Virus record (IMG/VR): IMGVR_UViG_3300046007_007030
DNA from: a virus
Strand: one strand, 5' to 3'
DNA length: 64,000 nt
Of this stretch, positions 14,609-62,630 are shown piece by piece. The translations under genes were made by a program, and so were the position numbers. The notes beneath the pieces were generated by a model. That model saw nothing but the letters and a program-made list of their open reading frames with translations, searched no databases and was not told the origin of the DNA. How positions within the stretch are numbered: position 1 is the first letter of the stretch; the number at the start of each line of letters is the position of its first letter.

Positions 14609-16624
14609 TTAGTAGGAGAAGATGATCTTGAAGGTCTCTTTTTGACCGGTAGTCCTAGTCACTTTCTCAATGTTTTCTAGATAGATTATGCGGCCACTCT
14701 CATATACCAGATCTGGCTCGTAGCTGAATGCTACGTATGCAGTGTCTCCGCTCTCTTCTCCAGTTACGGTGTCTCCAGTATTTATGTAGCCGAATTGATT
14801 GGTTAGATACATGACGTTGGCTGTATCTTCTTCGATTATGCCGAATAGGCTACCATGAGAATTGGCCGCCGAGGTGGCCTGGAACACTACCTCGTCTTCC
14901 TCGAAGGTATCGGTCGTAGTCACGTGATACTTCCACATCTGGTTGAAAGTGTTCAGGATAGAAGTCGTATTGGCTACCTTCATGTTATCTACAGTTCCAG
15001 AGGCGCCGGAGTCGTATCCGACCACGTTAGCCCCAGAGTCGTACGGCCTAGTGACGCCGCTGACTGCCACCGCCAGAGCCAAGTCATTGACTACCGTCGT
15101 GGGGTTAGACACGTTGGCCAAGTACATCTCGCAGTCGTTGCAGGCGAAGTTTCCTGGAGTGTCTATGGTCAGAGAAGTAGAGTTGGTGACTCCCAATACT
15201 CTAGCCAATTGCTTATCTCCGGATCCACTGACCAAGTAGATGATGGTGTTGGCTGCTATCTGGTTGAAGTAAGCTTCGCTTGCCGTCACCGAATTAGCAG
15301 ACGTCGTGATGCTGACGGAGTTGGCGAAGATCCTGACCGGGTTGATCTGATACGCAGTCTCGCCGCTGATGAACGTAGTGCCGTCCTTAGAAGTGAAATT
15401 GACGGTGACGTTAGCGTATTGAGGATCTATCATTACACCGACTTGACGGAAGTCGTTGACTGCCGGTAGGCTGTCGCTGCTCTCATTGAATGTGACGCTG
15501 AAGCACACTCTGGACGCCCCGAGCTCGTTATTGGCGTCGTAGCCGTGTCCGCCGTATGGACTCATGACGGGCCTGACAACGGCGTTGCTGGAGACCGGCA
15601 CTACGCTATTTGAATACACATACGCCGTAGCCGACTTGTACCCGGCGCCTCTATTCAGAATCTCAACGTAGTCGATCGTGTTGGCAACGCTGTTGATGAC
15701 GGCTCTGGCCGCGGCGTTGATGGTCTGAGTGTAGTCGCCCTCGATCATGACTTCTGGCGTGATCTCGTACTCCGATGTGATGTCCAGAGCCAAGATGTCG
15801 GAGAGAGTGATCACTCTGTTACTACCCGCCACGTCGTAAGATGCTACTTTCGAGTAAGATCCGGCGCCACTACCAGATACTACTTTGAAGATACATCCCA
15901 CGTAGAAGTCGTCCATGTTAGACGACTTATTGTTGCCAGAGATGTCGATCTTCTTCGAGTTACCGTCGATGTTTAGGTCGTTCTTACCCAGAGTACCCTC
16001 GAGATTGTTGTCGTACTTGGCACCAGGCGACTCTACTATGATGGAGTCTATGGTCCCGCCGACTGCGGCGGTGCTGACGCTGGTATTAGCCACCACTGGA
16101 ATGTAGCTGTCTGTAGCGAACTTCTCCATGTCGGCGTATGGAATCGTGTACATGTACTTCCATACGTAGCCGTCAGAAGTCCTGTAGATCTCATCGAAAT
16201 TGGTGATGTCATTTTTATCAGGAGCGACCGTGGAAGCTACGCTTCTGTTATTATAGAGGCACTTGAATACGTCGTGAGCAGTTCCCCTAGGCACCGTGAT
16301 GAAAAAGTTCTTGGAGAACAAGTTATCATCAGCGTCGTCGTACATGGCATAGAGTGTGTTCGCCACGTAGTTATATCGGTTCACCATGACTTTAGCGTCA
16401 CCGAAACTTACTCTCTTGCCGAAGAGCATGTCGGCATAGACTTGACGCTTACTGACTTCGCTATCGACTGGTAGTATGACTGCGTCACTATTGTCAGCGT
16501 ACTGCGTATGCTTGCTTAGAAAGACGTAGTAGACGTACTGACCGTCGAAGCCGAGAGACACGTCATTGACTATGTCTTCAGCAGTAAAGGTCTTAGCCTC
16601 TTGTGGTACTATCTTATAAGTCAT
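14609..16624 (-). CDS. gp8: Baseplate wedge subunit gp8-like
   Basis: VFKCLYNN, TSDGYVWKYMYTI, GGHGYD...ELGA, NDFRQVG and SGRIIYLENI motifs; gene order. Confidence 0.8.
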   Translation of the reverse strand: MTYKIVPQEAKTFTAEDIVNDVSLGFDGQYVYYVFLSKHTQYADNSDAVILPVDSEVSKRQVYADMLFGKRVSFGDAKVMVNRYNYVANTLYAMYDDADDNLFSKNFFITVPRGTAHDVFKCLYNNRSVASTVAPDKNDITNFDEIYRTSDGYVWKYMYTIPYADMEKFATDSYIPVVANTSVSTAAVGGTIDSIIVESPGAKYDNNLEGTLGKNDLNIDGNSKKIDISGNNKSSNMDDFYVGCIFKVVSGSGAGSYSKVASYDVAGSNRVITLSDILALDITSEYEITPEVMIEGDYTQTINAAARAVINSVANTIDYVEILNRGAGYKSATAYVYSNSVVPVSSNAVVRPVMSPYGGHGYDANNELGASRVCFSVTFNESSDSLPAVNDFRQVGVMIDPQYANVTVNFTSKDGTTFISGETAYQINPVRIFANSVSITTSANSVTASEAYFNQIAANTIIYLVSGSGDKQLARVLGVTNSTSLTIDTPGNFACNDCEMYLANVSNPTTVVNDLALAVAVSGVTRPYDSGANVVGYDSGASGTVDNMKVANTTSILNTFNQMWKYHVTTTDTFEEDEVVFQATSAANSHGSLFGIIEEDTANVMYLTNQFGYINTGDTVTGEESGDTAYVAFSYEPDLVYESGRIIYLENIEKVTRTTGQKETFKIIFSY

Positions 16625-16632
16625 CTTTCATC

Positions 16633-19600
16633 CTAGGCTATATTTGCAGTTAGGTTTGCGGATTCAGGTATAGAGAGATCTATATTGACCTCGTTTACCG
16701 TCGTATGTACGAAAGTGGAGAACATCTTCGTTCCAGCGAGGTGCATAGTGGAGTTGTAGTTATCGAGATAAGACTCTCTCGGAATAGACGTCTTGATGTC
16801 GTAGGAGTACTCTTGATAATAGTTGCCATCGAATAGATATTTACCATCGCTCAAGAATGACGCCTCGTCTTCGTAAGTCCCCAGCGTATAACCTTCTTTG
16901 ATCAATTTAGCCTTGGCGCTGCCGGCTCTCAGGCCGTCAGAAGAGAGGAACGTCACACCCTCGTTATCGAAGAAGTTGAAGCCAGACGATAGCAGATCCA
17001 GACTGCCCACGACGCCGTTCGCTATGGTGACATTGGCGCTGATGACTGCGTTTAGGCCAATGCCTAGCGCGCTATCGTCTTCGGCAATGCCGATTATGGT
17101 GGCATTAGCGCTGGTAGCCGTGCCAGTGATGACTCCATTTAGAGTGAACTGAGCCGTCATTGAGCTGTTAGCGCCTATCGGCAAGTTCTGTCTCCTGACG
17201 TACATGACGCTGGAGCTAGTGATCACTATGTCTTTGATTAGGCCGACGGCACCATTGTCCTGTGAGATCTGCTCGCCTACCATGAAGTTGCCAGAAGAAT
17301 TTGTGTAGGTGATGATGTAGTCTTTCGCATTAAATCCTGAGACGTACGGCTCTCTGACGAGCACCATGGGAGCTAGGTTATAGTCCTCGCCTGGATTCTC
17401 TGCCACTATCTTAGTGATGCTACCGACGTACGCGTTGATGTCGTTTAGAATATCACCGATGAACGGGCCGAATAGGTCTCCCGAGCTATTAGCCGGGAAT
17501 TGCCATGCCACGCCACCAGGAGTCACGTAGTAGTCGCCAGAAGAACTGGACCACGTATTCGTGTCGAGGACGAGGTGAGTCGAATTCGAGACCGTCGAGA
17601 CTTCAGTGAAGTCTGAGATGCCTTGACCACAGACGTACCAGCCTACACTTATGCCGGCGGTGCCTTCCGCTACCGCTACAATGTCAGTGTTTGCCACGAA
17701 TGTAAGTGTCAGAGGAGTAGGATAAGCGGTCGAGTTGGCGAGATTGAGCGACATATAAGGAACGCTCGCCTCGTTATTGCCCCTTAAGAAGTCGGTGTAT
17801 ACGCTATAAGTCTCCGCATAAGCAAACGTATTAGAGATCTCGAACGTGGCGTTCTTGCCGGTGCTGAGGGCTACTAAATTCGCTGTAGTATTAGAACCTA
17901 GGATGATGATGTCGCCGTTGCCGTCGTAGCTGTATCCCCTAGTGTATATTCTATTGTTGCCAGTATTGACGAAATCGTTATTGATATTCGCTATACCGAC
18001 GTAACCGTCATATGAGTTCAAGTAGGCGCTGTTACCGGAGTCTACTCCATTCGCGTACTGCATGTGGACGTCGACGGTGCGCCTGAATACGCCGGTAGAC
18101 TCGGAGAGAGTGACCGTCGCGCTATTACCTGCTCTTACGATGCCACTGATCTTACCACTGGCGGATATGTCGTATCCTCCAGTGTACGCTCTCCTCTGAG
18201 TGAGATACTGACCTATCGAGAAAGGAGTAGTACTATTAGAGACGAACATCGTGAGAGTGTTGCCGAAGCCCACGACGTTGCCAGTAGCAGTCCTGTCCAC
18301 GTATGCCGAGACGTTTATGGAGAAGGTATTAGACGGGGCCCAGAAGTAAGTATTGACCGCCGAGTTGCCGCTAGTGAGATACACGAACAGATTAGCCGTG
18401 CCGAGGTCTAAGTTAGCGATGTCATTGCCCACGACTTCGACAGTGGAGATGACTCCTCCCGTAGAGTTGTAGCTGCTGAGGACAGTGCCTACGTTGATGG
18501 TGGTTATCGCCACGGCGTCATTAGAGTCGAGGACTGTAGAATTGACTAGAGAGTTCGTGCTGAGTACGATATTACTGGTGAATGAGTCCACGCTGACTTC
18601 GAAGTCGCGCAGCTGGCTATTGGCCTTCGCTACTGAGATGACGAGATTTTGCGAAGTAGCATTTACCGCAGAGTTACTGACGATGGTTCCTACTGCCGTA
18701 TTTGATACGGTATTAGTCTGATAGACGACGGCTCCAATCGCGAACCAGGCAGACGCCGGCTTCGTCACCAAGACGGTCTGATGAGAAGTGTCGAATCTAT
18801 AGTTTAGGTTAGCCAGTGGTTGATACACTTCTTCGAGAGTGAAGAAGCTGGAAGCTACGTAAGGAGCCTGGTCCGGATTATTGACGACGTAGTCGACTAC
18901 CACGTTCTGTAGTGTCAAGATCTTATCAGACACGTATATCGTAGAGTTCGAGGTGTAGCCCCAGCCGCCGTCTTCTAGAACGAAGTCCACCACGCCAGTG
19001 GTGTTGTACACGTTCGATACGCGAGCCGTGGCCCCGTGTCCGTACCCGCTGTCAGACACTATCTCTACCACGTCGCCGACTCTGAAGTCCTTACTGCCGG
19101 CGGTGATGTCGAGGCGGCCTAGGGATCCTATGACTTTCGGTCTCTTCCTGTCACTGATAGTGAGACCCTCGTACGTGATCCTCTCGTTGTACATGAAGTT
19201 TCCAGTGATGCTGGATATGAACAAGAGATTGACGTAGCTGCCGCCGACTTTCTTCTGCACGAATCTCTCGGCGAAAGCGGTAGCACCTGAGCGAGTTCCG
19301 ATGACCTTCTTGCCGATGAACTGGTTGATCAGGTCGACGTGGCCGATTTCTAGGTAGTTTCTCTTTACCCAGTGATTGTCGGAGAGCTTGAATAAGTCCG
19401 TGCTAGGATAGTAGACCTGAGCAGGCACGCCATAGACTAGTTTGAAGAAGAGGTCTATGCCTCTCTCGGTGCCCTTAGACCTGTACAGATCTTGTACGTG
19501 CTTCACGAGCGTGCGCTTGTCTACGCTGGTGACGAACTTGAGATACGGTAGGTACTTGGCCTTGTAGTACTCGATGTACTCCTCGGGAGTCTTATCGATG

Positions 19601-19764
19601 TCTCTGTAATCCAGCAGCCTGCGCGTGTGATAGAGCGTCTCGCCTTCCTGCTCGAGGCTGGCGTAGTACATCTTGACGAACTCTACGAACTGCGGGTAGT
19701 TCTCCCTGTATACGAAGGGAAATTGCGAGGGGACGTAAGAACTTATGCGTCTCTCTTCAGTCAT
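16633..19764 (-). CDS. gp7: Baseplate wedge initiator gp7-like
   Basis: QFPFVYRENYPQFVEFVKMYY, LYRSKGT...LFFKLVYG and YYQEYSY...HLAGTKMF motifs; lies between gp6 and gp8. Confidence 0.75.
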   Translation of the reverse strand: MTEERRISSYVPSQFPFVYRENYPQFVEFVKMYYASLEQEGETLYHTRRLLDYRDIDKTPEEYIEYYKAKYLPYLKFVTSVDKRTLVKHVQDLYRSKGTERGIDLFFKLVYGVPAQVYYPSTDLFKLSDNHWVKRNYLEIGHVDLINQFIGKKVIGTRSGATAFAERFVQKKVGGSYVNLLFISSITGNFMYNERITYEGLTISDRKRPKVIGSLGRLDITAGSKDFRVGDVVEIVSDSGYGHGATARVSNVYNTTGVVDFVLEDGGWGYTSNSTIYVSDKILTLQNVVVDYVVNNPDQAPYVASSFFTLEEVYQPLANLNYRFDTSHQTVLVTKPASAWFAIGAVVYQTNTVSNTAVGTIVSNSAVNATSQNLVISVAKANSQLRDFEVSVDSFTSNIVLSTNSLVNSTVLDSNDAVAITTINVGTVLSSYNSTGGVISTVEVVGNDIANLDLGTANLFVYLTSGNSAVNTYFWAPSNTFSINVSAYVDRTATGNVVGFGNTLTMFVSNSTTPFSIGQYLTQRRAYTGGYDISASGKISGIVRAGNSATVTLSESTGVFRRTVDVHMQYANGVDSGNSAYLNSYDGYVGIANINNDFVNTGNNRIYTRGYSYDGNGDIIILGSNTTANLVALSTGKNATFEISNTFAYAETYSVYTDFLRGNNEASVPYMSLNLANSTAYPTPLTLTFVANTDIVAVAEGTAGISVGWYVCGQGISDFTEVSTVSNSTHLVLDTNTWSSSSGDYYVTPGGVAWQFPANSSGDLFGPFIGDILNDINAYVGSITKIVAENPGEDYNLAPMVLVREPYVSGFNAKDYIITYTNSSGNFMVGEQISQDNGAVGLIKDIVITSSSVMYVRRQNLPIGANSSMTAQFTLNGVITGTATSANATIIGIAEDDSALGIGLNAVISANVTIANGVVGSLDLLSSGFNFFDNEGVTFLSSDGLRAGSAKAKLIKEGYTLGTYEDEASFLSDGKYLFDGNYYQEYSYDIKTSIPRESYLDNYNSTMHLAGTKMFSTFVHTTVNEVNIDLSIPESANLTANIA

Positions 19765-21575
19765 CAGCTCTTCCTAACACCGAGGACGTTGACTTTGACG
19801 TCCTCTATCTTTATCTCGAAGTAGTCGCTCTTGCCGAAGTCTACGTCGTTAGACTCCGGAGTCACGTATATCTTGATGGCGTCTCCGCTGTACTTCTGCA
19901 CTGAGAAGCTGGACAGCTTAATTAGGCCCCTAGTGTAGTCTACGGTGCCGACGTTACGCACCAGAGAGAAAGTCCTACCAGAGCTGACGGTGATGATTCG
20001 AACGCTTCCGTTGTTGTCATCTTGGAGGAGGCAGGGCTTACCATCGAAGATGAACTGCGAAGAAGTCACTACCGTGTCGTAGTTCGTGGGATGAACATTC
20101 AGTACCTTGGGTAGAGTGCGCTTCAGAGCGAAGGAGAAGTCCAGAGTATAGTTACCCGGGACGTTGATCTGAGGCTTGATGGTCTTATACAAGGAGAACT
20201 CAGCCTCTGTGCTGAGAATAGACGGGTGAGTCTCGTCCATCGCGGTCACTAGATTACTGAACCTGACCGTGGAGTTGAAGTCGTTATAGTTAGTGTTGGA
20301 GTACTCGAGAATAGTGTTAGTGACTCGAGTAGCGACGTCTGCCGTCGTCAGGTCGGTCCTGTTCTGATCATACCTAGTAGTGACGTCGAGCCTACCCCAA
20401 GTGAAGGTAGGATCTACGAATACAGGGTCGATGGTCATCGGCATCCTATTGCGCAGCCACTTCCTGTACTCTTCTTTCTTATAGTCAGGTATGCCGTCGA
20501 AGCCTATCAGATCGGTAGCTATGAATACTCTGCCGTACTGAGGAGGATCCAGTACCTCTCCGCCGTATACTGCTAGGGCGTTGATCTCAGAGAATTGCTT
20601 CTTCAGCATCAGCCTGTAGTCTTCTGGGGTGATGGCTCTCTCTTGAGTCTGATAGTGACGAGGAGCGTTGAATCTGACGTCGTCCAGCGACTCGTACACA
20701 GACCCGCCTGAGGCTCTCCTGACCTGTCCCTCGCTGTCGAACTGAGTAGTGATGGTGACGTCGCCGAAGGTGCCGATGTTCCTGTCGTTGCTGAACTCGA
20801 AGGCTCCATTCGGTAGCTCGCCATTACAGATCCTGTACTCGGCGTAGACGGTGGCGCCATTCTTCGGGCGCTTGCCTATGACTCCGTTGCCGAATACGAT
20901 CTCGTACTTGTCGTTCTCCGCGGCCTGTAGGAAGAATACCTCCGACTGTGAGTCTAGGTCCAAGAACGAGGTGGCCAGGCGATACGTCTTCGAAGAAGAC
21001 TCGTCAGACACTACCACGGTGAGTGAAGTGGTGTCGATCGTAGGATTAGACAGGACGAAGCGTTGACGCTCGATGGCGTAGTTGCTGTAGAAAGTGTCGA
21101 CCACGTAAGTGCCTTCGTAGATCTCCACGCCTCTGGCCGTAAATACCGTCTCTACCGGATCGGTGATGACGATGTTCTCGGCGGTCACGAACTGATAGGT
21201 CTTAGAGTTGACGCGAGTAGAGAAGGACTGATTCTTCGGTATGGTCACCGATGAAGTGCTACTGTCAGTCACTACTGAGATGTCGACGACTGCCTTGGCA
21301 GACCTGAAAGACCTCGGAAGGTAGTTCAGGTCCTTGGTATGAGAGACGATGGAGTTCCTGAGCTGCGCACTGTCCAAGAACATCTCTGAGAAGAGCATGT
21401 TGAGGTAGAACGCGTTGTGATAGGTGTTGTAGGCGAGGATGTCGTTCAACACACTCATGTTAGAGCCGTCGAAGCTGTAGTCTTTGAAGAGAGGCTGCTC
21501 CTTGGCGTAGTTCCTTAGAGTCTCTTTGTACTTATTGAAGTCGAGATCTACTAGATTGATTACGGTATTTGCCAT
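19764..21575 (-). CDS. gp6: Baseplate wedge subunit gp6
   Basis: FKDYSFDGSNMSVLNDILAYNT, FLDSAQLRNSIVSH, YEIVFGNGVIGK and QERAITPEDY motifs. Confidence 0.92.
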   Translation of the reverse strand: MANTVINLVDLDFNKYKETLRNYAKEQPLFKDYSFDGSNMSVLNDILAYNTYHNAFYLNMLFSEMFLDSAQLRNSIVSHTKDLNYLPRSFRSAKAVVDISVVTDSSTSSVTIPKNQSFSTRVNSKTYQFVTAENIVITDPVETVFTARGVEIYEGTYVVDTFYSNYAIERQRFVLSNPTIDTTSLTVVVSDESSSKTYRLATSFLDLDSQSEVFFLQAAENDKYEIVFGNGVIGKRPKNGATVYAEYRICNGELPNGAFEFSNDRNIGTFGDVTITTQFDSEGQVRRASGGSVYESLDDVRFNAPRHYQTQERAITPEDYRLMLKKQFSEINALAVYGGEVLDPPQYGRVFIATDLIGFDGIPDYKKEEYRKWLRNRMPMTIDPVFVDPTFTWGRLDVTTRYDQNRTDLTTADVATRVTNTILEYSNTNYNDFNSTVRFSNLVTAMDETHPSILSTEAEFSLYKTIKPQINVPGNYTLDFSFALKRTLPKVLNVHPTNYDTVVTSSQFIFDGKPCLLQDDNNGSVRIITVSSGRTFSLVRNVGTVDYTRGLIKLSSFSVQKYSGDAIKIYVTPESNDVDFGKSDYFEIKIEDVKVNVLGVRKS

Positions 21576-22012: not shown

Positions 22013-23023
22013 TTACTTCTTCTCTTGGAGAGGCTTAGCATATTCACCCTTATCGATTCCACTCTTTATCTGGTCTTTGCTTAACTGGTCAGTCGAGAGC
22101 ACGCTACTCTTATTGCCAGCCTCGTTGAGCTGCACAGTAGAACCAGCGACGTACGTCGTAGCCTTAGAGCCGTAAGTAGCGCCGCTACCACCGATGACAC
22201 TGACCTGCCCCTTGGCCGACATGGAGTAGCTCTGACCGACAGTCGAGCTCTTATCTTGTGCTACGAACTCAGACAAGCCGCCCTCGGCCTCGATGAGGAT
22301 GTTACCCTTAGCCTTGATCTGCAAGTTGCCGTTGGTGGCTATGACTAGATTGCCTTCTGAGCCGAGAGTGTAGCTGCCGTCGACGGCCTCTTTCCTATCC
22401 TTGGCTGTGTAGGTGACGTAGTTGCCGTCTGCCTGCATCTCGGTGAAAGTTCCAGTAGGATGAACGCTGGCCTGGTAGGTCTCTCCACCGACGTCGTGGA
22501 GGATGTTTCTCATGCCAGACTCTGAGACGTTGACGTGAGTCTTTGGATATTTACCTTTGATCAGAGGAAAAGACGCAGGAGCGTCCTTCAGTATCAGCTT
22601 AGACATGTCTGTCTGAGGATCGTGCTTACCACCAGTGAGACCGTCTTTTAGACCACCGAGAGCCATCGAGGACTGACCGCCTGCAGAGGCGCCGACTATG
22701 TCCTTACCCGCATTGTTGTAGGGCATCGCACCCAGGACAGTCACGTCTTCGTGGTTGTCATGATTGACGAGTACCATGACGACGGCGTCTTTCGTCACAC
22801 TCAGACCACCCTGACCGCCTCCGCCTCCTTGATTAGGACCGACGCCCATCGCAGGTGACATGGTCTTGGCCAGTGGTAGCATGTTGGTGGGTGTCTGACC
22901 CTTGCTTCCGTGAATAGGAAGTCTGACCCTGATCCTGTTCAGCTGCTCCTTGTCGTCGTCTACTACCTCGACCGTACCGAACATGATCGAGGTCTCTTGA
23001 CCTTGTAGTTTGATGGAATCCAT
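22013..23023 (-). CDS. gp5: Baseplate hub/central spike gp5-like, without a lysozyme domain
   Basis: OB-fold N-terminus (GTVEVVDD...RIRVRL), YPKTHV.VSESG and HPTGTFTEM motifs, beta-helix repeats. Start reassigned to ATG 23023 (TAATG overlap with the upstream gene). Confidence 0.75.
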   Translation of the reverse strand: MDSIKLQGQETSIMFGTVEVVDDDKEQLNRIRVRLPIHGSKGQTPTNMLPLAKTMSPAMGVGPNQGGGGGQGGLSVTKDAVVMVLVNHDNHEDVTVLGAMPYNNAGKDIVGASAGGQSSMALGGLKDGLTGGKHDPQTDMSKLILKDAPASFPLIKGKYPKTHVNVSESGMRNILHDVGGETYQASVHPTGTFTEMQADGNYVTYTAKDRKEAVDGSYTLGSEGNLVIATNGNLQIKAKGNILIEAEGGLSEFVAQDKSSTVGQSYSMSAKGQVSVIGGSGATYGSKATTYVAGSTVQLNEAGNKSSVLSTDQLSKDQIKSGIDKGEYAKPLQEKK

Positions 23024-24165
23024 TATGAGATCTTTCCTACGCAGTGCAAGATGGTCCTGCCCGTATGACCTGGCGTCTCGCCTCTGCCACCTATCTCCAC
23101 ACTGTGCATCAGTGAGACTACTAGCCACTTACCGGAGGCGGCGTTATCAGGATTAGCGTCGCTGAAGTATGTCGCTGATCCGCTCTTCACTTCTATGACG
23201 TCACCTGCGTGTATGTCGGTAGCTATCGGTACTAAGAGCTGTAGCTTAGCCGTGTACTTATTTAAGTTCTGCTGGTCCCTGTCTATATGACGCTTCTCTT
23301 TGTCCTGCTCTGGACTATTGACTACTGGGAAGCCGACTTTTGCCGCTTGCTTAGAGTCTACGCCGAGACCTGGAGTAGACAGACCTCTAGAAGCCGCGTC
23401 GTTATTGGCGAACTTACCGAACTGAGGATTGAATCTCTGACCCTGAGCCTCGGTCTGCTTCTGAGTAGAGACTGAGCTGCCCTCATAGTGAATGTCGAAG
23501 ATAGTAGAAGCATCTCCCAGCGATCCCATGTCCGCAGACCCGGCTCCCTTGTACACGAACTGCTTCTTAGGACCTTGCTTAGATAAGTCGTCTATAGTCT
23601 TGAAGTAGGCACTGCCGCCGTCTTTATGAGTCTGATAGTAGAAGCCTTTCGACTGCGCGCCACTAAGTCCTCCGGCTTTCTCTATAGCCTTCATAGGCAT
23701 AAGAGACGGAGAAGTGAAAGAAGCTTGCTTGAATCCAGGACTAATCTCCAGCTTCTTTTTAGAACCTACTTCTTCATGGATCTCTTTGATGGCCTTGTCA
23801 GTGTTGGTCTTGTCCCAAGCCTTGGTGACTCTCTTACTAATGAAACACTTGCCATAGTCTTCGTCTATACATACTATCGAACCAGTGAGTCCCTTGGCAG
23901 TCTTGTGCAGAGATGGCTTGGCGCTATGAACTACGTGGCTCGCCGTCAGCGATGGTCCATTCTGAGGTTGAATGTTAATCTGTACCTGATTACCGGCCAG
24001 CGCTTCTTGCATCTCGTACCTCGAGTCGCGAGCCACTTCTATGGAGGATCGAACAAAAGAACTGTTTATGTCCTCTGCTACTATGATTCGACTGGCTAGC
24101 TGGACGACGTCTCTGCCGTTGACCGTAGCAGTGACGTTCTTCAGGACGTCTACTGGTTCAGACAT
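23023..24165 (-). CDS. Baseplate hub protein (gp27-like)
   Basis: Lies between gp53 and gp5; FYYQT...YFKTIDDL and AGDVIEV...SGKWLVVSLMH motifs. Confidence 0.6.
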   Translation of the reverse strand: MSEPVDVLKNVTATVNGRDVVQLASRIIVAEDINSSFVRSSIEVARDSRYEMQEALAGNQVQINIQPQNGPSLTASHVVHSAKPSLHKTAKGLTGSIVCIDEDYGKCFISKRVTKAWDKTNTDKAIKEIHEEVGSKKKLEISPGFKQASFTSPSLMPMKAIEKAGGLSGAQSKGFYYQTHKDGGSAYFKTIDDLSKQGPKKQFVYKGAGSADMGSLGDASTIFDIHYEGSSVSTQKQTEAQGQRFNPQFGKFANNDAASRGLSTPGLGVDSKQAAKVGFPVVNSPEQDKEKRHIDRDQQNLNKYTAKLQLLVPIATDIHAGDVIEVKSGSATYFSDANPDNAASGKWLVVSLMHSVEIGGRGETPGHTGRTILHCVGKIS

Positions 24166-25412: not shown

Positions 25413-26546
25413 TTAGAAGTCCGTGCTTAGCCATGCCACAGTCTCTGTGATCTTCATGTCGATCTGGACTGATACTGGATACTTGTCTTTATGGAATGCT
25501 GGACCACTCTCAGTGGTGTAGTTGACGGAGAAGGACTCTACGTACGCTGGCTTAAAGATGTACATCTGATCTTGATTGTAGAGAATGATATTGATCAGAT
25601 GCGGGTACTTGAATGCTAATCCTCCGTAATCCGAAGTAGGGTATATCTTAGACTTGATGAAGCGTATGATGTTATAGAGTATCTCTGACTCTTCTTTGGT
25701 AGACGGCACTAACTTCCAGGAAAACGCATGAGACTTCAAGCTAGGTTGAACGAACTTGAGAGTCTGGTGAGTATTGACCGCGAATCCTGATAGAGCTAGA
25801 CCTGCTTCGCCGACTGCTGATACGGCATTAAAAATACCTCCGAGAGCATCTCCAAACCTACCAAGTTTTTGGACTACATCACTTGCGCCGGCTAATCCTC
25901 CGATTAAGCCACCCAGAGCTTCTTTACCTTTCTCAGTTAGACTGAGAGGCTGATAGACGAGAGCGTTGACATCGGTTAGATTCATAGGAACTGGTAAGAA
26001 TACGTCTCCGGATCCTTTCCTACTGTAGCTACCCAATTGAATAGATGAGATAGTATCGAAGCTGGCGTATTCAAACTGCATGGCCATCCAGTACTTGCCG
26101 ATGTCTCGTGGGAACTGAAGTGATCCACTGCCGGCCTGATTCCTAGCCCTGACTTCTTCCACGCCTGGTCTCTGACTAGTCAACCTGCTAAAACTGCTGG
26201 CTTGACCGACCGCACTCAAGAAAGAGTCCGCCTGTCTATAAGCAGACGCAGCCGAGCCGGCTATCGCAGAGATAGAAGATCCAGCTAGTCCAGTAGCGCC
26301 TAGCGCACTGGTGAACGCCTGGACTGGAGAACCACTAGCGAAGCCTTGAACCAAGCTGGAAGCCTGATCGAATCCTTTTAGGGCGCTTTGAATGGTGCCA
26401 GAGAGCTGACCAAAGGCTCCTGGATTGAAGCCCTGGATGTTGGAGAGGGTCTGGACGACCGAGCTGATCTGTCCGAGGGGAATCATCGCCCCGACTTTTG
26501 AAGTGATCTGACTAGCCGTAGCGAGAGCATTAGCCGATGTGGCCAT
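25413..26546 (-). CDS. gp48: Baseplate tail-tube cap gp48-like
   Basis: FLPVP.NL.D, HAFSWKLVPSTKEES, FKYP and SVNYT motifs; lies next to gp53. Confidence 0.75.
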   Translation of the reverse strand: MATSANALATASQITSKVGAMIPLGQISSVVQTLSNIQGFNPGAFGQLSGTIQSALKGFDQASSLVQGFASGSPVQAFTSALGATGLAGSSISAIAGSAASAYRQADSFLSAVGQASSFSRLTSQRPGVEEVRARNQAGSGSLQFPRDIGKYWMAMQFEYASFDTISSIQLGSYSRKGSGDVFLPVPMNLTDVNALVYQPLSLTEKGKEALGGLIGGLAGASDVVQKLGRFGDALGGIFNAVSAVGEAGLALSGFAVNTHQTLKFVQPSLKSHAFSWKLVPSTKEESEILYNIIRFIKSKIYPTSDYGGLAFKYPHLINIILYNQDQMYIFKPAYVESFSVNYTTESGPAFHKDKYPVSVQIDMKITETVAWLSTDF

Positions 26547-26584: not shown

Positions 26585-27016
26585 ATGAGCTCTAAAGGCC
26601 GATTCAAGCCCAAGAATCCAGAAAAGTACAAAGGAGACCCGACCAACATCATCTATAGGTCTGGTTGGGAGCTCAAACTCATGGGCTATTTAGACGTTCA
26701 CGGAGAAGTAGTCCAGTGGGCCTCAGAGGAGTTCTGTATTCCATATAGGTCTCCTGTAGATAATAGAATACACCGGTACTTTCCTGACTTCTGGGTAAAG
26801 AAGACGGACGGATCCATCTTAGTCATAGAAGTGAAGCCGGCCGTCCAAGCCGAACCGCCGAAGCAACCGAGTAGGATGACTCGAAGGTACGTGAACGAAG
26901 TCTTTGAGTATGGCAAGAATCAGGCCAAATGGAAGGCCGCGCGCGAGTTCTGTGAAGATCGCGGCTGGCTATTTATGGTAATGACAGAACGAGAACTCGG
27001 CATCAAGAGGATCTAA
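26585..27016 (+). CDS. gp4: Head completion nuclease gp4
   Basis: KGRFKPKNPEKYKGDPTNIIYRSGWE...HRYFPDF...IEVKP...NQAKWKAA. Confidence 0.92.
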   Translation: MSSKGRFKPKNPEKYKGDPTNIIYRSGWELKLMGYLDVHGEVVQWASEEFCIPYRSPVDNRIHRYFPDFWVKKTDGSILVIEVKPAVQAEPPKQPSRMTRRYVNEVFEYGKNQAKWKAAREFCEDRGWLFMVMTERELGIKRI

Positions 27017-27612
27017 TGGCAAACATATTCGATAAGATACTCGAGATCTCGCCCATAGAGGCGGGAAAAAAGTCGAAGTCGGCTCTGGAGTGGTTTCGTC
27101 AAAAAGCTAGCGGCAGTAAGATCAGCCCGAACACTCTGCTGACTGCAGGCGACTACAGACAGAACTTCGTACCATCGCCTCTTCCAGGCAGCATGTTCCT
27201 CTTTCAATACGACGCGAAGCACAAGGAGACGTTGCCTTACTGGGACATGTATCCTCTGATATTCCCCATACAGATGGACGCTACCGGATTCTTGGGCATC
27301 AATCTACACTACCTCCCACCGACTCTCAGAGCCAGTCTTTTCAGTAGCCTAGTCGGCTTCGGGTCTAAGAATGAGTTCGAAGACTTGAAGTTGTCTTACT
27401 CGATATTGACTAAATACTCTAGACTCAGTTACTTCAAGCCGTGCTTGAAGAGATACTTGTTTAGCCACGTCAAGTCGCCGTTCCTCTACATAGAACCAGA
27501 CGAGTGGCCGATAGCCATATTCTTGCCGCTGCAGAGATTCCAGGGAGCTGGCTCTGGTAAAGTATACGCCGACTCGAGAAAGATCATCGGAACAAAGAGA
27601 AAGTACAAGTAA
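27016..27612 (+). CDS. gp2: DNA end protector protein gp2
   Basis: YDAKHKETLPYWDMYPLI, FLGINLHYLPP and KPCLKRYL motifs. Confidence 0.92.
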   Translation: MANIFDKILEISPIEAGKKSKSALEWFRQKASGSKISPNTLLTAGDYRQNFVPSPLPGSMFLFQYDAKHKETLPYWDMYPLIFPIQMDATGFLGINLHYLPPTLRASLFSSLVGFGSKNEFEDLKLSYSILTKYSRLSYFKPCLKRYLFSHVKSPFLYIEPDEWPIAIFLPLQRFQGAGSGKVYADSRKIIGTKRKYK

Positions 27613-28364
27613 TGCCAGCCATCGGAAAAGGGTTTGACATAGACGAGTTTAGAGCTCTCATGGCCCGAAAGGGCATAGCCCGAAACAACCTATACAAACT
27701 GATCATCACTCCGCCGCCGGGTCTACTGAGCGCAGCTCGCGCCTTGAATATGCCGACGAGTGGAGAAGACCTAGAAGACATCACACTCTACTGCGACAGC
27801 GTCACCATGCCAGGCATATCTCTAGCGACAGTGGACTCTCGTCCATACGGATACGGACCTTCTGAGCTCAAGGCATACGCGCCGATATATCAGCCACTAG
27901 GCGCGACCTTCATAGTGGACGCCAAAGGATACACGCTCTCGTTCTTTCGCAACTGGATGAGAGGCATAGTGAACTATACTACTGAAGGTAGAGCAGTGTG
28001 GCGTTCCGCAGTAAACGAAGTCATGGCTTTTGAGGCCGGCTACAAGGCAGATTACGAGACTACCATGACTCTGTACGTAGTGGCTGGTCAGACTACTTCG
28101 TCATCTACTAACGAGTTGCAACTAGACATCGTCAATAAGACCGTCATCAATAGAGCTTTCCCCATAGAGATAGGTTCAGTGCAGCTCAGTTACAGCTACA
28201 ACGACCAGTACCTGTCGCTACCAGTGAGTTTCAGCTACTTCGATTGGTACAGCGACGTGCTAGATCAGTCTGGCTACCAGACCGGCACGCAACAAGCCGC
28301 CGGATCTTCTGGAGGCGCAATCAATACGCCGTTCAACTACAACGCGGCCCAAAATAGACGTTAA
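27612..28364 (+). CDS. gp54: Baseplate tail-tube initiator gp54-like (tail tube gp19 family)
   Basis: GIARNNLY, CDSVTMPG and AFPIEIGSVQLSY...LPVSFSY motifs. Confidence 0.75.
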   Translation: MPAIGKGFDIDEFRALMARKGIARNNLYKLIITPPPGLLSAARALNMPTSGEDLEDITLYCDSVTMPGISLATVDSRPYGYGPSELKAYAPIYQPLGATFIVDAKGYTLSFFRNWMRGIVNYTTEGRAVWRSAVNEVMAFEAGYKADYETTMTLYVVAGQTTSSSTNELQLDIVNKTVINRAFPIEIGSVQLSYSYNDQYLSLPVSFSYFDWYSDVLDQSGYQTGTQQAAGSSGGAINTPFNYNAAQNRR

Positions 28365-28379
28365 CATGGAGACTTAATT

Positions 28380-29090
28380 ATGCCACTTCCGAAACTACAG
28401 TATCCAATCTTTGAGTTGGAAGTACCATCGACGCAGAAGACCTATAAGTTCAGGCCTTTCTTAGTATCCGAGGAGAAGATCCTCCTCATGGCACAGCAGA
28501 GCGGAGACCTCAAAGAAATCATATTGGCTCTGAAGCAGGTCATCGCTAATTGCTGCCAGGATAAAGAATTCGAAGCCGATAAGATCGCAACATTCGACAT
28601 CGAGTACTTGTTCCTCAAGCTCAGGTCCAGGTCAGTCAGCAACATGGCAAAGATCTACCTCACTGACAACGAGGATGGCAAAGAATACAGCTTCGACGTG
28701 GATCTCGAGAATGTCGGGATGAAGAAGAATCCATTACACACTCCTAAGATCTCGCTGAATGACACTGTGAGTGTGGTGCTGAGGTATCCGACCACTCAGA
28801 TGCTGGATGCAATAGCAGTGATGCAGGTAGAGACGAAGGCATTCTTCGAAGTCATGAAGTACTGCATCGAGTTCGTCATAGACGGCGACACTATCACTAA
28901 GTTCAGTGACGCTACTGACGCAGAGCAAGACGAGTTCGTGCAGAGCATCGACATCGCCGGCTTCACGAAGATCACTAACTTCTTCGAGACAATGCCGAAG
29001 ATGTACTACGAGATCGACTACAAGAACTCTCTCGGGCACGACAGAAAGGCAGTGCTCAAGAATCTAAACGATTTTTTTATATTGGGCTGA
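28380..29090 (+). CDS. gp26: Baseplate hub assembly protein gp26
   Basis: MPLPKL..P, FRPFLVSEEKILLMA, FDIEYLFLKLRSRSV and FFETMPK motifs; ends LNDFFILG. Confidence 0.88.
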   Translation: MPLPKLQYPIFELEVPSTQKTYKFRPFLVSEEKILLMAQQSGDLKEIILALKQVIANCCQDKEFEADKIATFDIEYLFLKLRSRSVSNMAKIYLTDNEDGKEYSFDVDLENVGMKKNPLHTPKISLNDTVSVVLRYPTTQMLDAIAVMQVETKAFFEVMKYCIEFVIDGDTITKFSDATDAEQDEFVQSIDIAGFTKITNFFETMPKMYYEIDYKNSLGHDRKAVLKNLNDFFILG

Positions 29091-29266
29091 GTCACAACAA
29101 CCTCAAGAACTACTACGAAGTAGTGTTTGGCTTGGCGCATCATCATAAGTACTCGATCTCCGACATCGAGGCCTTGATTCCTTTCGAGAGGGACGTATAC
29201 GTAGACTTAGCAGTCGCGTACAAGAAGCAAGTAGAAGAAGAGATGAGAACCAGGAATGGCGGATAA
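29072..29266 (+). CDS. gp51: gp51-like baseplate hub assembly catalyst, in the -1 frame and without its own start codon
   Basis: The -1 frame reads ...GLSHNNLKNYYEVVFGLAHHHKYSISDIEALIPFERDVYVDL...RNGG*, carrying the HKYS..IE..IPFERD.YV signature. Missed by the ORF track. Confidence 0.75.
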   Translation, partial: FFYIGLSHNNLKNYYEVVFGLAHHHKYSISDIEALIPFERDVYVDLAVAYKKQVEEEMRTRNGG

Positions 29267-31664
29267 TACGACCAAAGAGCAGCTGGACATGATCGTTCAG
29301 ACTATAGGCTTCGGTATAGTCTCTGACTTCCGACAGCTCTCTGACGCTATGCTCAACGTGTCATCAGACATTCGAAACAACTCGAATATCATAGGCGATG
29401 TCAATAGGAATCTAGCCGAGACTAGCCGGACTCTGAGTCAAGTCGAGACGAACATCTATAGACAGAGAGACGCTCGCAAATTCAGACAACTGGAATCTCA
29501 GCTCGAGAATCGTCTTAGACTCAACGGCAGTCGCAACGAAGAGACCATGAGGAGGATAGCTGACGCCCTCGATAAATTACAGAAGCAGGGCATACTAGGC
29601 GGAGCTGGAGGCAGTAAAGAAGAGGAAGATACCGGAGGTGGTGGCGTCGGTTTTGTAGAGGGATTGGTAGGCGGCCTTCTCGGTGGTAAAGCCGGTTCTT
29701 TCTTGAAGGGCGCCGCTAAGACTGTAGGTAAAGCAGGAAAATTCGGCCTTGCAGTAGGAGCGGTCGCTGCAGTGGGTGCAGCCGGATCTTATCTCATGGG
29801 TTCTGGCTCTTCAGAAGAAGAACAGGCTCCGGATGCTAACCTATCTCCCTCGGCTGCAGCTTCTGGATCGACTGGTGCCCCTACAGTAGCAAGTGACACG
29901 ATGCAGATGGGTGACGTGGGGCTAGGCGCGGGAGCGACTGTAGGCGCTGCAGCTATCGTGGAGAGAACCACGAGAACTGCCAGACAGAAGGCCATATCAA
30001 AAGTCTTGCCTAAAGTTCCCTCCTACTTATCTAAATTCGGAGGCAAACTCGCTACTACGATAGGCCTAAAGAGTATTCCTATATTCGGAGCTCTCGTGGG
30101 TGGATACTTCTCGTTTAGTCGATTCATGTCTGGTGACACTTGGACGTCTATCGGCGCGGAGTTCGTCTCTGGCGTTGCTCCTAACGTCGGTGGCTTAGGT
30201 GGTCCGGCTGGATACGTAGCGGGAGTCTCGTCTACTCTCGCCATTCAGGCGTACTTGATTACCAGAGACATCTACAATGAAGAGAATGCCATCGACATCA
30301 GAAACAACGTAGTACCGAACTTCGACGACCTCACGATGTCAGAGAAGACGCAGGTAGTCAAAGACGTCGGCGCGTATGTCGAGTCGTATGTGAATAGTCT
30401 CTTGGGTAGAGCCAAGACCGGTGATGCAGCCGTCGCTAATGCGACAGCTTCTTCTACGGCAGGAGCCGGGTCGGCACTTCCGCCGCCGTCTGCTGCACCT
30501 CCTGGCGCCGTTCCAGCGGCACCTCCGAGCTCTGCACCTCCTCCTCAAACATCTGGTCCACCTGCTCCTGAGACTCAAGCTCCTCCAGGAGTCACGACTG
30601 ATACTGCCGCACAAGCCGGAGCAGCATTGGCGGCTGCGGCCCCACCTAATCCGATACCTGATACTCCTGAAGCTAGACAGCAGATGAGCGACAGACTATA
30701 CGGACCCACGAGCGCCGGAGTCAATGAGACAGTCGACGCTGAGATTGGCGGAGGAGTAAGTCCTTCAGACACAGCAGCCTCGTTCTCCACTCAGTCGAAC
30801 CTAGGAGGTGACATCACTGCTCCTACACCAGGAGCGGCAGGTACCTACAGACCGACGTATCCACTCACTGAAGCAGACTTGAGCCCAGACGTGATTAACG
30901 TCATCGCTGGTGAGGCGCGTATGAGTGATCCTACTAGCTACTATGCCGTCATCAATAACATGATGAATAGAGTGGGCGGTCGAGGATACGGGCCTAGTGG
31001 TAACCTGAGACAAGTAGCTCGCGCTCCTGGCCAGTATGCCGGTTATAGAAAGGCGTCACCAGAAGAACAGCAGAAGATCATAGAGGCCATCAAGGCAGTC
31101 GCTGCTGGTAACGTACCAGATAACACTAATGGCTCGACTGAGTTTAGAGCTAGGTGGTACATGCTGGGCGAGGGCAGAGGGAAGACTGCATATAGGACTG
31201 CAGTAGAGCAGGGATTCAACGACCAGGGAGGAAACGTCTACTTCAGGAATCCTAAGGCACAGCTAGGTCCCTACGCTGCTTACTCAGCTGGCAACACTCC
31301 GCCAGAGCAGCAAACCTCGGAGTCATCAAAAGTGTCTAAGCCTATGGCAGAAGGCGCTACAGTCATACCTCTACCATCTGACAAACAGAAGTCCGGTGTC
31401 AGCGCAGACTTGAGACCTCCTGAGACTATGTCTGCAATAGATGATGAAAACACTGAAGACTTTAGTCAGATGCCTATCAACAATAGAAAACAGCAGCCCA
31501 ACTTAGTGGGCAGTCCGTCAGAGAACATAAGGAATAGACTCATCACTTACAGACCATTCATGGAACACATGTTCGGCACGCTGACTGATGAGCTCAGTGC
31601 TCACGTCAGTGGTGAAGTCACAGCAGATAAGGCGTTCAAAGACGCCATGAATCCGTTATCCTGA
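29256..31664 (+). CDS. Tape-measure/hub-like virion protein with a C-terminal SleB-like cell-wall hydrolase
   Basis: Coiled-coil N-terminus, Gly/Ala hydrophobic stretches, Pro-rich linker, then VIAGEAR...AVINNMMNR...QV...GQYAGY...DNTNGSTEF. Confidence 0.7.
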   Translation: MADNTTKEQLDMIVQTIGFGIVSDFRQLSDAMLNVSSDIRNNSNIIGDVNRNLAETSRTLSQVETNIYRQRDARKFRQLESQLENRLRLNGSRNEETMRRIADALDKLQKQGILGGAGGSKEEEDTGGGGVGFVEGLVGGLLGGKAGSFLKGAAKTVGKAGKFGLAVGAVAAVGAAGSYLMGSGSSEEEQAPDANLSPSAAASGSTGAPTVASDTMQMGDVGLGAGATVGAAAIVERTTRTARQKAISKVLPKVPSYLSKFGGKLATTIGLKSIPIFGALVGGYFSFSRFMSGDTWTSIGAEFVSGVAPNVGGLGGPAGYVAGVSSTLAIQAYLITRDIYNEENAIDIRNNVVPNFDDLTMSEKTQVVKDVGAYVESYVNSLLGRAKTGDAAVANATASSTAGAGSALPPPSAAPPGAVPAAPPSSAPPPQTSGPPAPETQAPPGVTTDTAAQAGAALAAAAPPNPIPDTPEARQQMSDRLYGPTSAGVNETVDAEIGGGVSPSDTAASFSTQSNLGGDITAPTPGAAGTYRPTYPLTEADLSPDVINVIAGEARMSDPTSYYAVINNMMNRVGGRGYGPSGNLRQVARAPGQYAGYRKASPEEQQKIIEAIKAVAAGNVPDNTNGSTEFRARWYMLGEGRGKTAYRTAVEQGFNDQGGNVYFRNPKAQLGPYAAYSAGNTPPEQQTSESSKVSKPMAEGATVIPLPSDKQKSGVSADLRPPETMSAIDDENTEDFSQMPINNRKQQPNLVGSPSENIRNRLITYRPFMEHMFGTLTDELSAHVSGEVTADKAFKDAMNPLS

Positions 31665-33481
31665 TGATCAACGTAGAACTCCAGAGACTAAAGACTCGCG
31701 TTGGTAACTCGTTCTTGCGTGCGTTCTATCCTATCGACTATCGCAGTACTCAAAACATTATCAGTAATCTCGATAAGCTACTGGAGCGCGAGACCAGAGA
31801 ACTGCGCACGATGTCTTCTACTACTAGTCAGATAAGTCAGAAGATCGGTAGGACTATAAACACTCTGGCAGAAGAAGTTGACAAGAGTCAGAGAGCGCTG
31901 GACGACTTACAAAATAAGCTAAGCGCCAGCGACGAGATTTTGCTCGAAAGAATGACGCAGATGGAGCAGTCGTCATTAAACCTGAACGGTCTGCTAGGCG
32001 CGCTGGCCGGCGCTGGTCTCGGGTCTAGGAGAGGTGATGGGAAGGCGCCAAAATCGAAGAGTCCACCGAAAGGAGCTCCTCCTGATAAGTCGCCGAAGAC
32101 GAAGAGTAGATTCAAGCTGCCTGGAGGACTCGGTCTAGTTGGAACTGCTATAACTCTCTGGTCGATGTGGGATGAGTTGAGCTCGCTCGACCCCAATGTG
32201 AAGAAAGAAGAGTACAAACAGAATGTAGCTCAGATCATCATAAGAACCGCTGCCTCAGTAGGACTGATGTACGTAGGCGCAGTAGTAGGAGGCATAGTCG
32301 CAGGAGCGATCGCTGGTCCTGGAGCAATAGTAGGATTCATAGGCGGCCTATTAGGCGGCGCTGCCCTAGACTTCTTTTACGGAGACAGCGTAGACGATAT
32401 CGTAAATCAAGTCGTCGACTATCTCTATACTGGAGACGATGAAGAGACTCCACAGCCGACGGAAGAAGACGTCAAGGCCGTCGAAGACGCGACAGTCTCT
32501 ATGAGAGAGACTACTGCGCCTCCTCTACAGCCTCCACAAAACGTAGCGCCAGAGATGAGTGCAGCAGCTGCTGCAGCGGCTGCTACGGGTATAAGTTCAG
32601 AGACTAGAGCCCAGTTCGTCGGCCCTCCTATAGCAGGACCTACACCTCCGGTACCTCCTGCCTTCCAAGTAGTCGACGGTCCTGTCATGGATCCTGCTCC
32701 AATAGAAGAGATAGACTTCGAGCCTCCAATAAATGAGACTTCTAGAGGTCTGGATTCTCAAAAAGTAGTCGACGATGCTCTGCGCAGGGCTAAGACTATC
32801 GTAGATCAGAATGAAGAAGAAGCGGGAGGTATCACTGATCCTAACGACACTACTGCGACTATCGACACGAGCCAGAATTTAGCAGGTGGAACAGAAGAGC
32901 AAGCGATAAGACCCTCGCAGTCTGTGACTGGAGGGGCTGAGCTAGTTTTTCAGTTACAGGGGAAGAATAGGTCAGGCATGCCAAATGCCGACGTGTTGAA
33001 TCTAGTGGCAGCAGCTGCGGCGTCTGTCGGCATGGAGAAGATAGCCGTAACTAGCGGCAAGGGCGATTACATCAGTCCTGCTGGAAGAGCCAAGGGGCAG
33101 AAGTCGACTTTCCACTCGACTGGTAAGGCCGTAGACGTGGCTGGATTTAGCAGCCAGCAACAGAAAATAGCATTCGCACAGGCAGCTATATCATTGGGAG
33201 CCGGTGGCATAGGAGCCTACAGAAATGGATCTCTTCACGTAGACACTGGACCTAGGAGGTCTTGGAATTGGGGTGATCCTAACTTCCCGAAGCTAGCCGA
33301 AGGCGCGAAGATCGAACCAACTAATGGAGGTACTCTGGCCCTCATTGGCGAGGCCGGAGAGCCAGAGTACGTCGTACCTCAGAGCAAAGCCATTAAGTTC
33401 GCTCATGAGATGATCTCGGCACAACCACGTTACAAAACTAAGAAGCATACTCACTACGTGATCGTGCCGATTCTCTCTTAA
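31664..33481 (+). CDS. Second tape-measure-like virion protein with a peptidase M15-like domain
   Basis: VTSG...STFHSTGKAVDV...GGIGAY...LHVDTG (H-x6-D...H zinc motif); C-terminal ALIGEAGEPEYVVP motif. Confidence 0.7.
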   Translation: MINVELQRLKTRVGNSFLRAFYPIDYRSTQNIISNLDKLLERETRELRTMSSTTSQISQKIGRTINTLAEEVDKSQRALDDLQNKLSASDEILLERMTQMEQSSLNLNGLLGALAGAGLGSRRGDGKAPKSKSPPKGAPPDKSPKTKSRFKLPGGLGLVGTAITLWSMWDELSSLDPNVKKEEYKQNVAQIIIRTAASVGLMYVGAVVGGIVAGAIAGPGAIVGFIGGLLGGAALDFFYGDSVDDIVNQVVDYLYTGDDEETPQPTEEDVKAVEDATVSMRETTAPPLQPPQNVAPEMSAAAAAAAATGISSETRAQFVGPPIAGPTPPVPPAFQVVDGPVMDPAPIEEIDFEPPINETSRGLDSQKVVDDALRRAKTIVDQNEEEAGGITDPNDTTATIDTSQNLAGGTEEQAIRPSQSVTGGAELVFQLQGKNRSGMPNADVLNLVAAAAASVGMEKIAVTSGKGDYISPAGRAKGQKSTFHSTGKAVDVAGFSSQQQKIAFAQAAISLGAGGIGAYRNGSLHVDTGPRRSWNWGDPNFPKLAEGAKIEPTNGGTLALIGEAGEPEYVVPQSKAIKFAHEMISAQPRYKTKKHTHYVIVPILS

Positions 33482-35704: not shown

Positions 35705-36030
35705 GAGAGTGGTGGGTTTATTCTGTTTCCAAGTCAAACCCACCGAAAACTCATGTCAGGCCGCTAGGGCGAGACGAGGTGCATAGTTGTCGTTTGCACT
35801 TAACGTTTTGCGCTTGACGTAGTCGCCTACGATTATCTCCAGTCGCCTATTACACTCTTGTCGAATCCTAAGCTCGCCCCCATCAAGAACACACCGATTA
35901 TCATATCTCATCGGCTAGCACGATATAAGACCACACGCTCTATTCGGTGGCTGGTGTGTTCGTGGTGGAGGCGCCGGGAGTTGCACCCGGGTCCAAGTAG
36001 TCTTTCAACTTCCTTCTACGATAATTCTGT
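35705..36030 (-). ncRNA. ssrA: Circularly permuted two-piece tmRNA
   Basis: On the minus strand: an acceptor piece ending CCGGG-TGCAACT-CCCGG-CGCCTCC-A-CCA (35963), an 81-nt intervening segment, then a coding piece starting GGGGGCG...GGATTCGAC (35881; G3:U pair). Tag frame ANDNYAPRLALAA* at 35797-35756. Outer ends approximate. Confidence 0.92.
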
Positions 36031-36250
36031 CTTGTCAATCCTAGTTCACTCCCATCAAAGATGCATCTTTGGCCATTTTAGATGAGCCTCAGCATATTTC
36101 TTTCCCATCGTCTCAGAATCAACCAATATTGTTACTTTGACGTTGGTTTCAAGAATAATAAATTCTTCGATCTTTTTAAGTTTCATGATGCATCTTTGGT
36201 GGAGGCGCCGGAGTTGCACCTGGGTTCAAGTACCTTCTACGATAATTCTA
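36029..36250 (-). pseudogene. Degenerate duplicate of the tmRNA tRNA-like domain
   Basis: A second AGAATTATCGTAGAAGG...TGCAACTCCGGCGCCTCCACCA and a second 5' piece GGGAGTGAACTAGGATTGACAAGA, with no tag region of its own. Confidence 0.75.
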
Positions 36251-60669: not shown

Positions 60670-60745
60670 TGGCGACCCCTGGAGGACTCGAACCTCCGAC
60701 CCACAGCTTAGAAGGCTGTTGCTCTATCCGCTGAGCTAAGGGGCC
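60670..60745 (-). tRNA. tRNA-Arg(TCT)
   Basis: 76-nt cloverleaf, anticodon loop CT-TCT-AA, encoded CCA. Confidence 0.93.
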
Positions 60746-62464: not shown

Positions 62465-62471
62465 ATTGAAT

Positions 62472-62546: not shown

Positions 62547-62549
62547 TAT

Positions 62550-62625: not shown

Positions 62626-62630
62626 TTTGT

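Follow-up and report, generated by a model that had tools for sequence, protein, structure and literature searches.

The window, by which we mean the entire 64,000-nt stretch of viral DNA analyzed here, carries a T4-like virion module in which baseplate wedge genes (14609-21575), a hub/lysozyme-like gene (22013-23128), and a gp48/54-like gene (25413-26546) lie on the minus strand, followed by gp4 (26585-27016) and gp2 (27016-27612). On the plus strand, a tail-tube-like gene of 250 codons (27612-28364) matches phrog_45 ("tail tube"; E 1.8e-35) and, just under the cut-off, PF23849 (Phage_TTP_2; E 1e-5). This gene adjoins the 5' side of gp26, as the tube gene does with the chaperone genes in lambda-type tail modules. 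The gp26 ORF (28380-29090, plus strand) encodes in the zero frame a short form of 236 amino acids (27.2 kDa), which matches phrog_150 ("baseplate hub"; E 5.8e-58) and PF12322 (T4_baseplate; E 8.9e-54). The latter match scores 182.9 bits against a cut-off of 24.5 and covers profile positions 3 to 218 of 219, that is, the full length of the family, of which the window holds one copy.

The 3' end of gp26 reads GAT TTT TTT ATA TTG GGC TGA and contains, with X_XXY_YYZ phasing relative to the ORF, the candidate slippery heptamer T_TTT_TTT (29072-29078, plus strand). Beyond a TAA stop at 28976-28978, the -1 frame stays open from 28979 to 29266, and the GTG at 29123 is the first ATG, GTG, or TTG codon within it. 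A slip of one base backward on the heptamer would append 62 new residues and a stop codon (29078-29266, plus strand), giving a predicted long form of 295 amino acids and 34.2 kDa with the junction ...LNDFF|YIGLSHNNLK; the junction peptide predicted for this form is ...NDFFYIGLSHNNLK. For the -1 piece, the match is phrog_634 ("baseplate hub assembly catalyst," gp51; E 2.5e-21), and the -1 frame read from the heptamer is also weakly matched by the C-terminal end of phrog_150, the gp26 family profile. The initial annotation, made from the DNA letters, had placed a perfect in-phase heptamer at this site, described the -1 frame as free of ATG, GTG, and TTG between the stop at 28976 and position 29123, and predicted a junction between gp26 and gp51. 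The heptamer is present as described, the absence of start codons is borne out, and the predicted junction is right, with predicted products of 236 and 295 residues.

Downstream, the ATG of an 802-codon low-complexity ORF (29256-31664, plus strand) overlaps the end of the extension, and a 605-codon ORF follows (31664-33481, plus strand), the C terminus of which weakly resembles L,D-endopeptidases/M15 peptidases (PF05951, E 8e-5; NF053624 MepK, E 1.5e-7; both below cut-off). Both ORFs contain Gly/Ala/Pro low-complexity segments, and gp32 and gp59 are located beyond them. The 802-residue product matches nothing in Pfam, PHROG, or NCBIfam, and neither product is similar to T4 gp29 or to any protein in the phage collection. 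The equivalent genes in phages phiM12 and Cr30 are annotated as tape-measure-like. The two ORFs can be called tape-measure-like, as in the initial annotation, by position and composition, no homology having been found; for the 802-codon ORF, the putative assignment follows from position. The pair may form a tape-measure/hub protein that is split in two and includes a cell-wall hydrolase.

Conservation of the T-run in related phages

Relatives of the gp26 locus surfaced in protein-level searches; at the DNA level, the gp26-gp51 region matched nothing in the phage collection. Our comparison set comprises 89 loci, namely the window, 8 GenBank phages (cyanophages, a pelagiphage, and phages of Sinorhizobium, Caulobacter, and Stenotrophomonas), and 80 IMG/VR contigs, with gp26 proteins that are 35 to 79% identical. 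An in-phase T_TTT_TTN is found in all 89 loci, zero to eight codons ahead of the gp26 stop, its last base being T in 42 loci, C in 46, and A in 1. The codon preceding the run varies (GAT, AGT, TCT, GCT, AAT, or ACT, encoding D, S, A, N, or T), but T invariably occupies its third position, and the first of the two Phe codons is TTT throughout. Indeed, both third-codon positions inside the run are T in each of the 87 aligned sequences, while neighboring third positions are scrambled. Given a codon-usage expectation of about 0.41 per lineage, the probability of this pattern after collapse to 17 clusters is about 1e-10, to be read as an order of magnitude because the clusters are not fully independent. 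The conservation of the T-run is far beyond chance. On these comparative grounds, we regard the recoding site as real and very strongly conserved.

The same comparison bears on the possibility that the seven-T run of the window is a homopolymer assembly error within an originally fused gene, a reservation raised in the initial annotation, or that the extension has decayed into a nonfunctional remnant. Sequencing errors are common in homopolymers, and a few database proteins resemble in-frame fusions, some of them with other frame errors. However, the same out-of-frame layout occurs in 88 other independent sequences, finished isolate genomes included, which makes an assembly error implausible. 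Moreover, the -1 extension is open over 55 to 74 codons in all 89 loci, is conserved from its first codon onward, and is under strong purifying selection, against the idea of decay. We consider an artefact or a decaying gene highly improbable.

The length of the run is also pertinent to transcriptional slippage, in which RNA polymerase would add one U at the T-run and a minority of the mRNAs would encode the identical 295-residue protein. The site is a pure homopolymer, and weak slippage could suffice if the long chaperone form is needed at a few percent, the lambda G:GT ratio being about 30:1. Efficient transcriptional slippage in bacteria usually needs a run of about nine or more, and the runs observed here are short, with six T in 47 loci, seven in 37 (including the window), and eight in 5. 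Furthermore, the run is followed by C in 45 of the 46 loci of the TTTTTTC clade, which indicates an absence of pressure toward longer runs.

Start codons of the shifted frame

The gp51-like domain could alternatively be made as a free peptide, without any fusion, from the GTG at 29123 or a non-canonical CTG at 29087, by initiation coupled to the termination of gp26; the T-run would then merely encode Phe-Phe. The relatives bear on this proposal in both directions. An ATG lies 3 to 8 codons past the heptamer in 37 of 87 relatives, where database records annotate gp51; translation from this ATG could additionally yield a free gp51 peptide in such phages. In 38 of 87 loci, however, no ATG, GTG, or TTG is found within eight codons of the extension start; no usable start exists in loci L039, L081, L012, and L015, and L039 lacks these codons anywhere in the -1 ORF. 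As for the window itself, two of the candidate starts named in the initial annotation are not conserved: the GTG at 29123 is found only in the closest relatives and its use would drop 17 conserved residues, and the position of the CTG at 29087 is occupied by CTC, CTT, or CTA in many others.

Two phages clearly initiate the domain separately. In Vibrio phage D528 and Pseudomonas phage Cygsa01, the heptamer is lost (CTTTTC and ATTTTC, respectively) and the same domain begins at a TAATG-coupled ATG instead; this arrangement was seen in exactly the two phages that have lost the heptamer. Many database gene calls also begin 14 codons upstream, in the -1 frame. Nevertheless, conservation of a Phe-Phe pair leaves unexplained both the invariant TTT of the first Phe codon and the invariant third-base T of the variable codon before it, and T4 gp51 shows that the tail works when attached to a gp26-like body (see below). 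Independent initiation in place of fusion is, in our view, quite unlikely for the window.

The upstream calls deserve a separate remark. They start at a conserved "MW" (ATG TGG) located 14 codons 5' of the heptamer, so that the called gp51-like gene overlaps gp26, and they account for P0004, P0005, and about 40 of the best 150 matches, a large clade. Among our 89 loci, a start is present at this position in one only (L080, where it is a GTG). The "MW" codon may mark a genuine alternative start, or else reflect an artefact of gene calling.

Database annotation of the domain is uneven. The gp51 piece is left unannotated in the records of S-MbCM6, ACG-2014j, Cronobacter phage S13, and Aeromonas phage AS-sw, and other GenBank records call "gp51" from whichever ATG comes next. 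No inspected GenBank record joins the two ORFs, with the gp51-like piece absent or given an arbitrary start farther downstream; the 295-residue long form is therefore absent from protein databases. S-MbCM6 and ACG-2014j were at one point candidates for natural fusions and were rejected, as the gp51 piece under their "baseplate hub subunit" is simply unannotated. An unannotated gp51-like -1 extension also follows gp26 in the Ackermannviridae member Klebsiella phage Menlow (L094, 1900-2110). Its site, G_ATT_TTC, is a non-canonical heptamer, and the domain start there lacks ATG, GTG, and TTG, with ATT where relatives have ATG.

RNA structure around the heptamer

The 60 to 70 nt located 3' of the heptamer are more structured than their shuffled versions (mean z of -2.4, against -0.6 for a control region), and in a scan from -480 to +120 the stretch directly 3' of the heptamer is the most structured position. 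In the TTTTTTT clade, to which the window belongs, a 9-bp stem pairs alignment columns 27-35 with 74-82 and starts 7 nt past the heptamer. Pairing holds in 85% of cells, versus 24 to 41% in slid registers, and compensatory changes are seen in seven of nine pairs, a level reached by 1 of 500 shuffles. In the TTTTTTC clade, the hairpin is local and weaker (53.8% paired, reached by 0 of 500 shuffles). For both clades, these figures come from a biased test, the named stems having been picked by eye from the sequences tested. In the window, the spacer of 7 nt (29079-29085, plus strand; from the fold and the clade alignment) leads to a 5' arm (GCUGAGUCA; 29086-29094, plus strand; clade columns 27-35) that is present in the minimum free energy (MFE) fold and spans the gp26 stop codon (29088-29090). 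The 3' arm lies within 29128-29141 (plus strand), at 29128-29136 in the MFE fold of the window and at 29133-29141 in the clade-consensus register; the window forms seven of the nine consensus pairs in the clade register, and its own MFE uses the shifted 3' arm.

RNAalifold returned no single consensus structure for either clade alignment, because the pairing register differs among sub-clades. No Rfam family was found at the site, where two sub-threshold chance matches were the only hits. Upstream of the heptamer, an SD-like motif occurs at a distance of 6 to 18 nt in 57 of 89 loci versus a background of 6.6%, an excess confounded by the overlap of the motif with a conserved Glu-Gly coding motif. 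The window lacks it, its upstream sequence being ...CAAGAATCTAAACGA.

A conserved stem 7 nt downstream is a classic stimulator of -1 frameshifting and has no known role in transcriptional slippage. Taken together, the short runs, the phase-specific heptamer, and the stem at canonical spacing favor a slip of the ribosome, and we consider slippage of the polymerase unlikely.

T4 genes 26 and 51 as counterparts of the two predicted products

Comparison with T4 suggests what the two forms may correspond to. T4 gp26 (208 residues) is a full-length PF12322 protein (E 9e-64). T4 gp51 (249 residues) matches PF12322 over residues 1-201 (E 4e-52), and so does the gp51 of a Jiaodavirus over residues 1-202 (E 4e-53). 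BLASTP aligns T4 gp26 with T4 gp51 at an E value of 2e-6; judged from these matches, the two proteins are paralogues. The remainder of gp51 corresponds to the -1 extension: in hhalign comparisons, the extension profile aligned with residues 200-244 of T4 gp51 (probability of 68%, E 5e-5) and with residues 201-250 of Jiaodavirus gp51 (probability of 89.5%, E 2e-6). The extension, which is kept in all relatives, is thus homologous to the C-terminal 50 or so residues of T4-type gp51. By these matches, T4 gp51 is built like the predicted frameshift product and T4 gp26 like the form translated in the zero frame. Since gp51 consists of a gp26-like body and a tail homologous to the extension, T4 encodes the short and long forms as two genes, which are divergently transcribed in both T4 and a Jiaodavirus. 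T4 gene 26 also contains an annotated internal in-frame product, 26' (95 residues; L095, 3803-4090, minus strand), and T4 may thus have three PF12322-derived products.

A complete relative genome of 168.9 kb with terminal repeats has one PF12322 gene only, and therefore no paralogue that could supply the long form in this lineage. Natural fusions of the two parts do occur in databases. P0002 (287 residues) is a clean in-frame fusion from which the junction residues are deleted, and P0064 is a partial in-frame fusion protein whose junction, ...NFFLLILSH, is of exactly the predicted type. Four further candidates (P0003, P0015, P0016, and P0089) were not counted, as they look like contigs with extra frame errors.

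We used P0002 for structure prediction with AlphaFold, supplying gp26 and extension sequences as alignment rows. The model (pLDDT of 85) is confident in the body (residues 1-230), and the extension is predicted as helical with low to moderate confidence. Foldseek found no significant match to the model in the PDB. In an exhaustive comparison with 48,161 chains, the three best matches were 3FGX (Z of 8.1), 2OB9, described as the HK97 tail assembly chaperone (Z of 7.7), and 3KLU, YqbN (Z of 7.1), all of them on residues 1-95, and the next match had a Z of 4.8. Scores of 7 to 8 being moderate, the model points with moderate confidence to the HK97 tail assembly chaperone as the closest fold of the N-terminal domain of the shared body. 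Both gp26 and gp51 are listed as hub assembly chaperones, and T4 gp51 is essential for hub assembly yet absent from the particle (Leiman et al. 2010, PMC3004832).

Discussion

We propose that the gp26 locus of the window encodes a chaperone pair similar to lambda G/GT, produced by -1 ribosomal frameshifting, and we put the probability of this reading, built on comparative sequence analysis, at about 0.7. The initial annotation had advanced the same proposal, which is supported by the architecture of T4 gp51, by the chaperone-like fold of the body, and by the single PF12322 gene in the complete relative. The points that it had listed as able to refute the proposal, namely loss of the heptamer in relatives, independent starts, and an assembly error, each came out on the side of the frameshift. 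From these comparisons we infer the slip itself, its ribosomal nature, its efficiency, and the chaperone mechanism.

In such a mechanism, most ribosomes would read to the TGA at 29088 and release the 236-residue short form. A minority would slip back by one base with two Phe-tRNAs on U_UUU_UUU (29072-29078), continue in the -1 frame, and yield the 295-residue long form, whose last 62 residues would make up the gp51-like helical domain. The stem located 7 nt downstream, with its 5' arm over the zero-frame stop, probably pauses the ribosome on the slippery site. If the pair works like lambda G/GT and P2 E/E', one would expect the shared body to bind the tape-measure/hub protein, with the extension serving as the link to the tube or hub during assembly, and neither form to remain in the virion.

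The -1 frameshift in lambda gpG/gpGT and its conservation among tail assembly chaperone genes were reportedly described by Levin and colleagues in 1993 and by Xu, Hendrix, and Duda in 2004. The locus in the window resembles lambda G/GT in its overlapping ORFs, in the heptamer near the end of the first ORF, in the start-less second ORF in the -1 frame, in lying between a tube-like gene and long ORFs of putative tape-measure identity, and, according to the structural model, in the HK97-chaperone-like fold of the N terminus. Unlike in lambda, the heptamers are of the type U_UUU_UUY rather than G_GGA_AAG, and the body is longer (about 230 residues versus about 140), only its first 95 or so residues matching the chaperone fold; no sequence similarity between the two systems is detectable.

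The phage P2 pair E/E+E' is a tail chaperone pair of a myophage, encoded upstream of the tape-measure gene, for which the ribosome slips by -1 on a run of T's, TTTTTTG. It is unrelated in sequence to the pair proposed here, and P2 E is much smaller. The P2 pair was reportedly described by Christie et al. (2002, PMC135442).

Many relatives combine an SD-like motif about 9 to 10 nt upstream, the heptamer, and a downstream stem, a three-part signal similar to that of Escherichia coli dnaX. The window departs from dnaX in having the stem 7 nt downstream without the SD-like motif. Termination follows the shift immediately in dnaX, and no domain is added, whereas in the window the shifted frame would add one.

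A direct literature search found nothing linking gp26 or gp51 with frameshifting, and we reached the most relevant study through a paper that cites it. Vladimirov, Gautam, and Davidson (Virology 2022, 566:9-15) are credited in that paper (PMC10885494) with the observation that in some T4-like phages frameshifting is replaced by a pair of genes, one short and one longer and fused. A 2025 paper (PMC12846349) credits the same authors with polyT signals for -1 frameshifting in the TAC-N genes of T4-like phages. Going by these citations, the core idea, namely the chaperone identity and the poly-T signal, appears to be published already. The T4-like chaperones as represented there belong to the same PF12322 family and follow the same logic of short and long forms, with no clear difference from our case; the window adds a further phage to the single-gene, T-run type. 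The value added by our analysis lies in the confirmation on a new, probably alphaproteobacterial, phage lineage and in quantitative comparative evidence.

T4 itself shares with the window the PF12322 body, found in both gp26 and gp51, and a gp51 tail homologous to the -1 extension. The two differ in that the T4 forms come from separate, divergently transcribed paralogous genes without a frameshift, whereas in the window one gene must make both, and in that T4 also has the internal 26' product. Tentatively, and with a little less than even odds, we suggest that the single-gene frameshift is ancestral to the T4-like superfamily. Genes 26 and 51 of T4 would then have arisen by duplication, with the shifted frame hard-wired in one copy, and Vibrio phage D528 and Pseudomonas phage Cygsa01 would have split off the tail as a peptide with its own start. 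Each clade would have reinvented the RNA elements that stimulate the shift, as a long-range stem over the stop codon in the clade of the window and as a local hairpin with an upstream SD-like motif in cyanophages. This scenario may be contained, in part or as a whole, in the study by Vladimirov et al. If it is true, phages offer three natural solutions to one problem of the short-to-long ratio, open to comparison. More generally, frameshifting, two genes, and a detached tail form a large natural series in which to study how the ratio of chaperone forms is set.

Other features of the window are of interest in their own right. A permuted, two-piece tmRNA is encoded at 35711-36086 on the minus strand (Rfam RF04321, 96.4 bits; RF01849 alpha_tmRNA, 69 bits), with the tag peptide ANDNYAPRLALAA according to ARAGORN. 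It is unusual cargo for a T4-like phage and points to an alphaproteobacterial host. On the same strand, two ORFs of 1721 and 845 codons (9429-14594 and 6855-9392, respectively) match consecutive parts of phrog_358, a family of unknown function, and may correspond to one giant structural protein split in two. Finally, a tRNA cluster on the minus strand (60670-62722) comprises Arg(tct), Met(cat), and Leu(taa), on which ARAGORN and Rfam agree, together with a 92-nt "Ile(tat)" (62631-62722) called by ARAGORN only.
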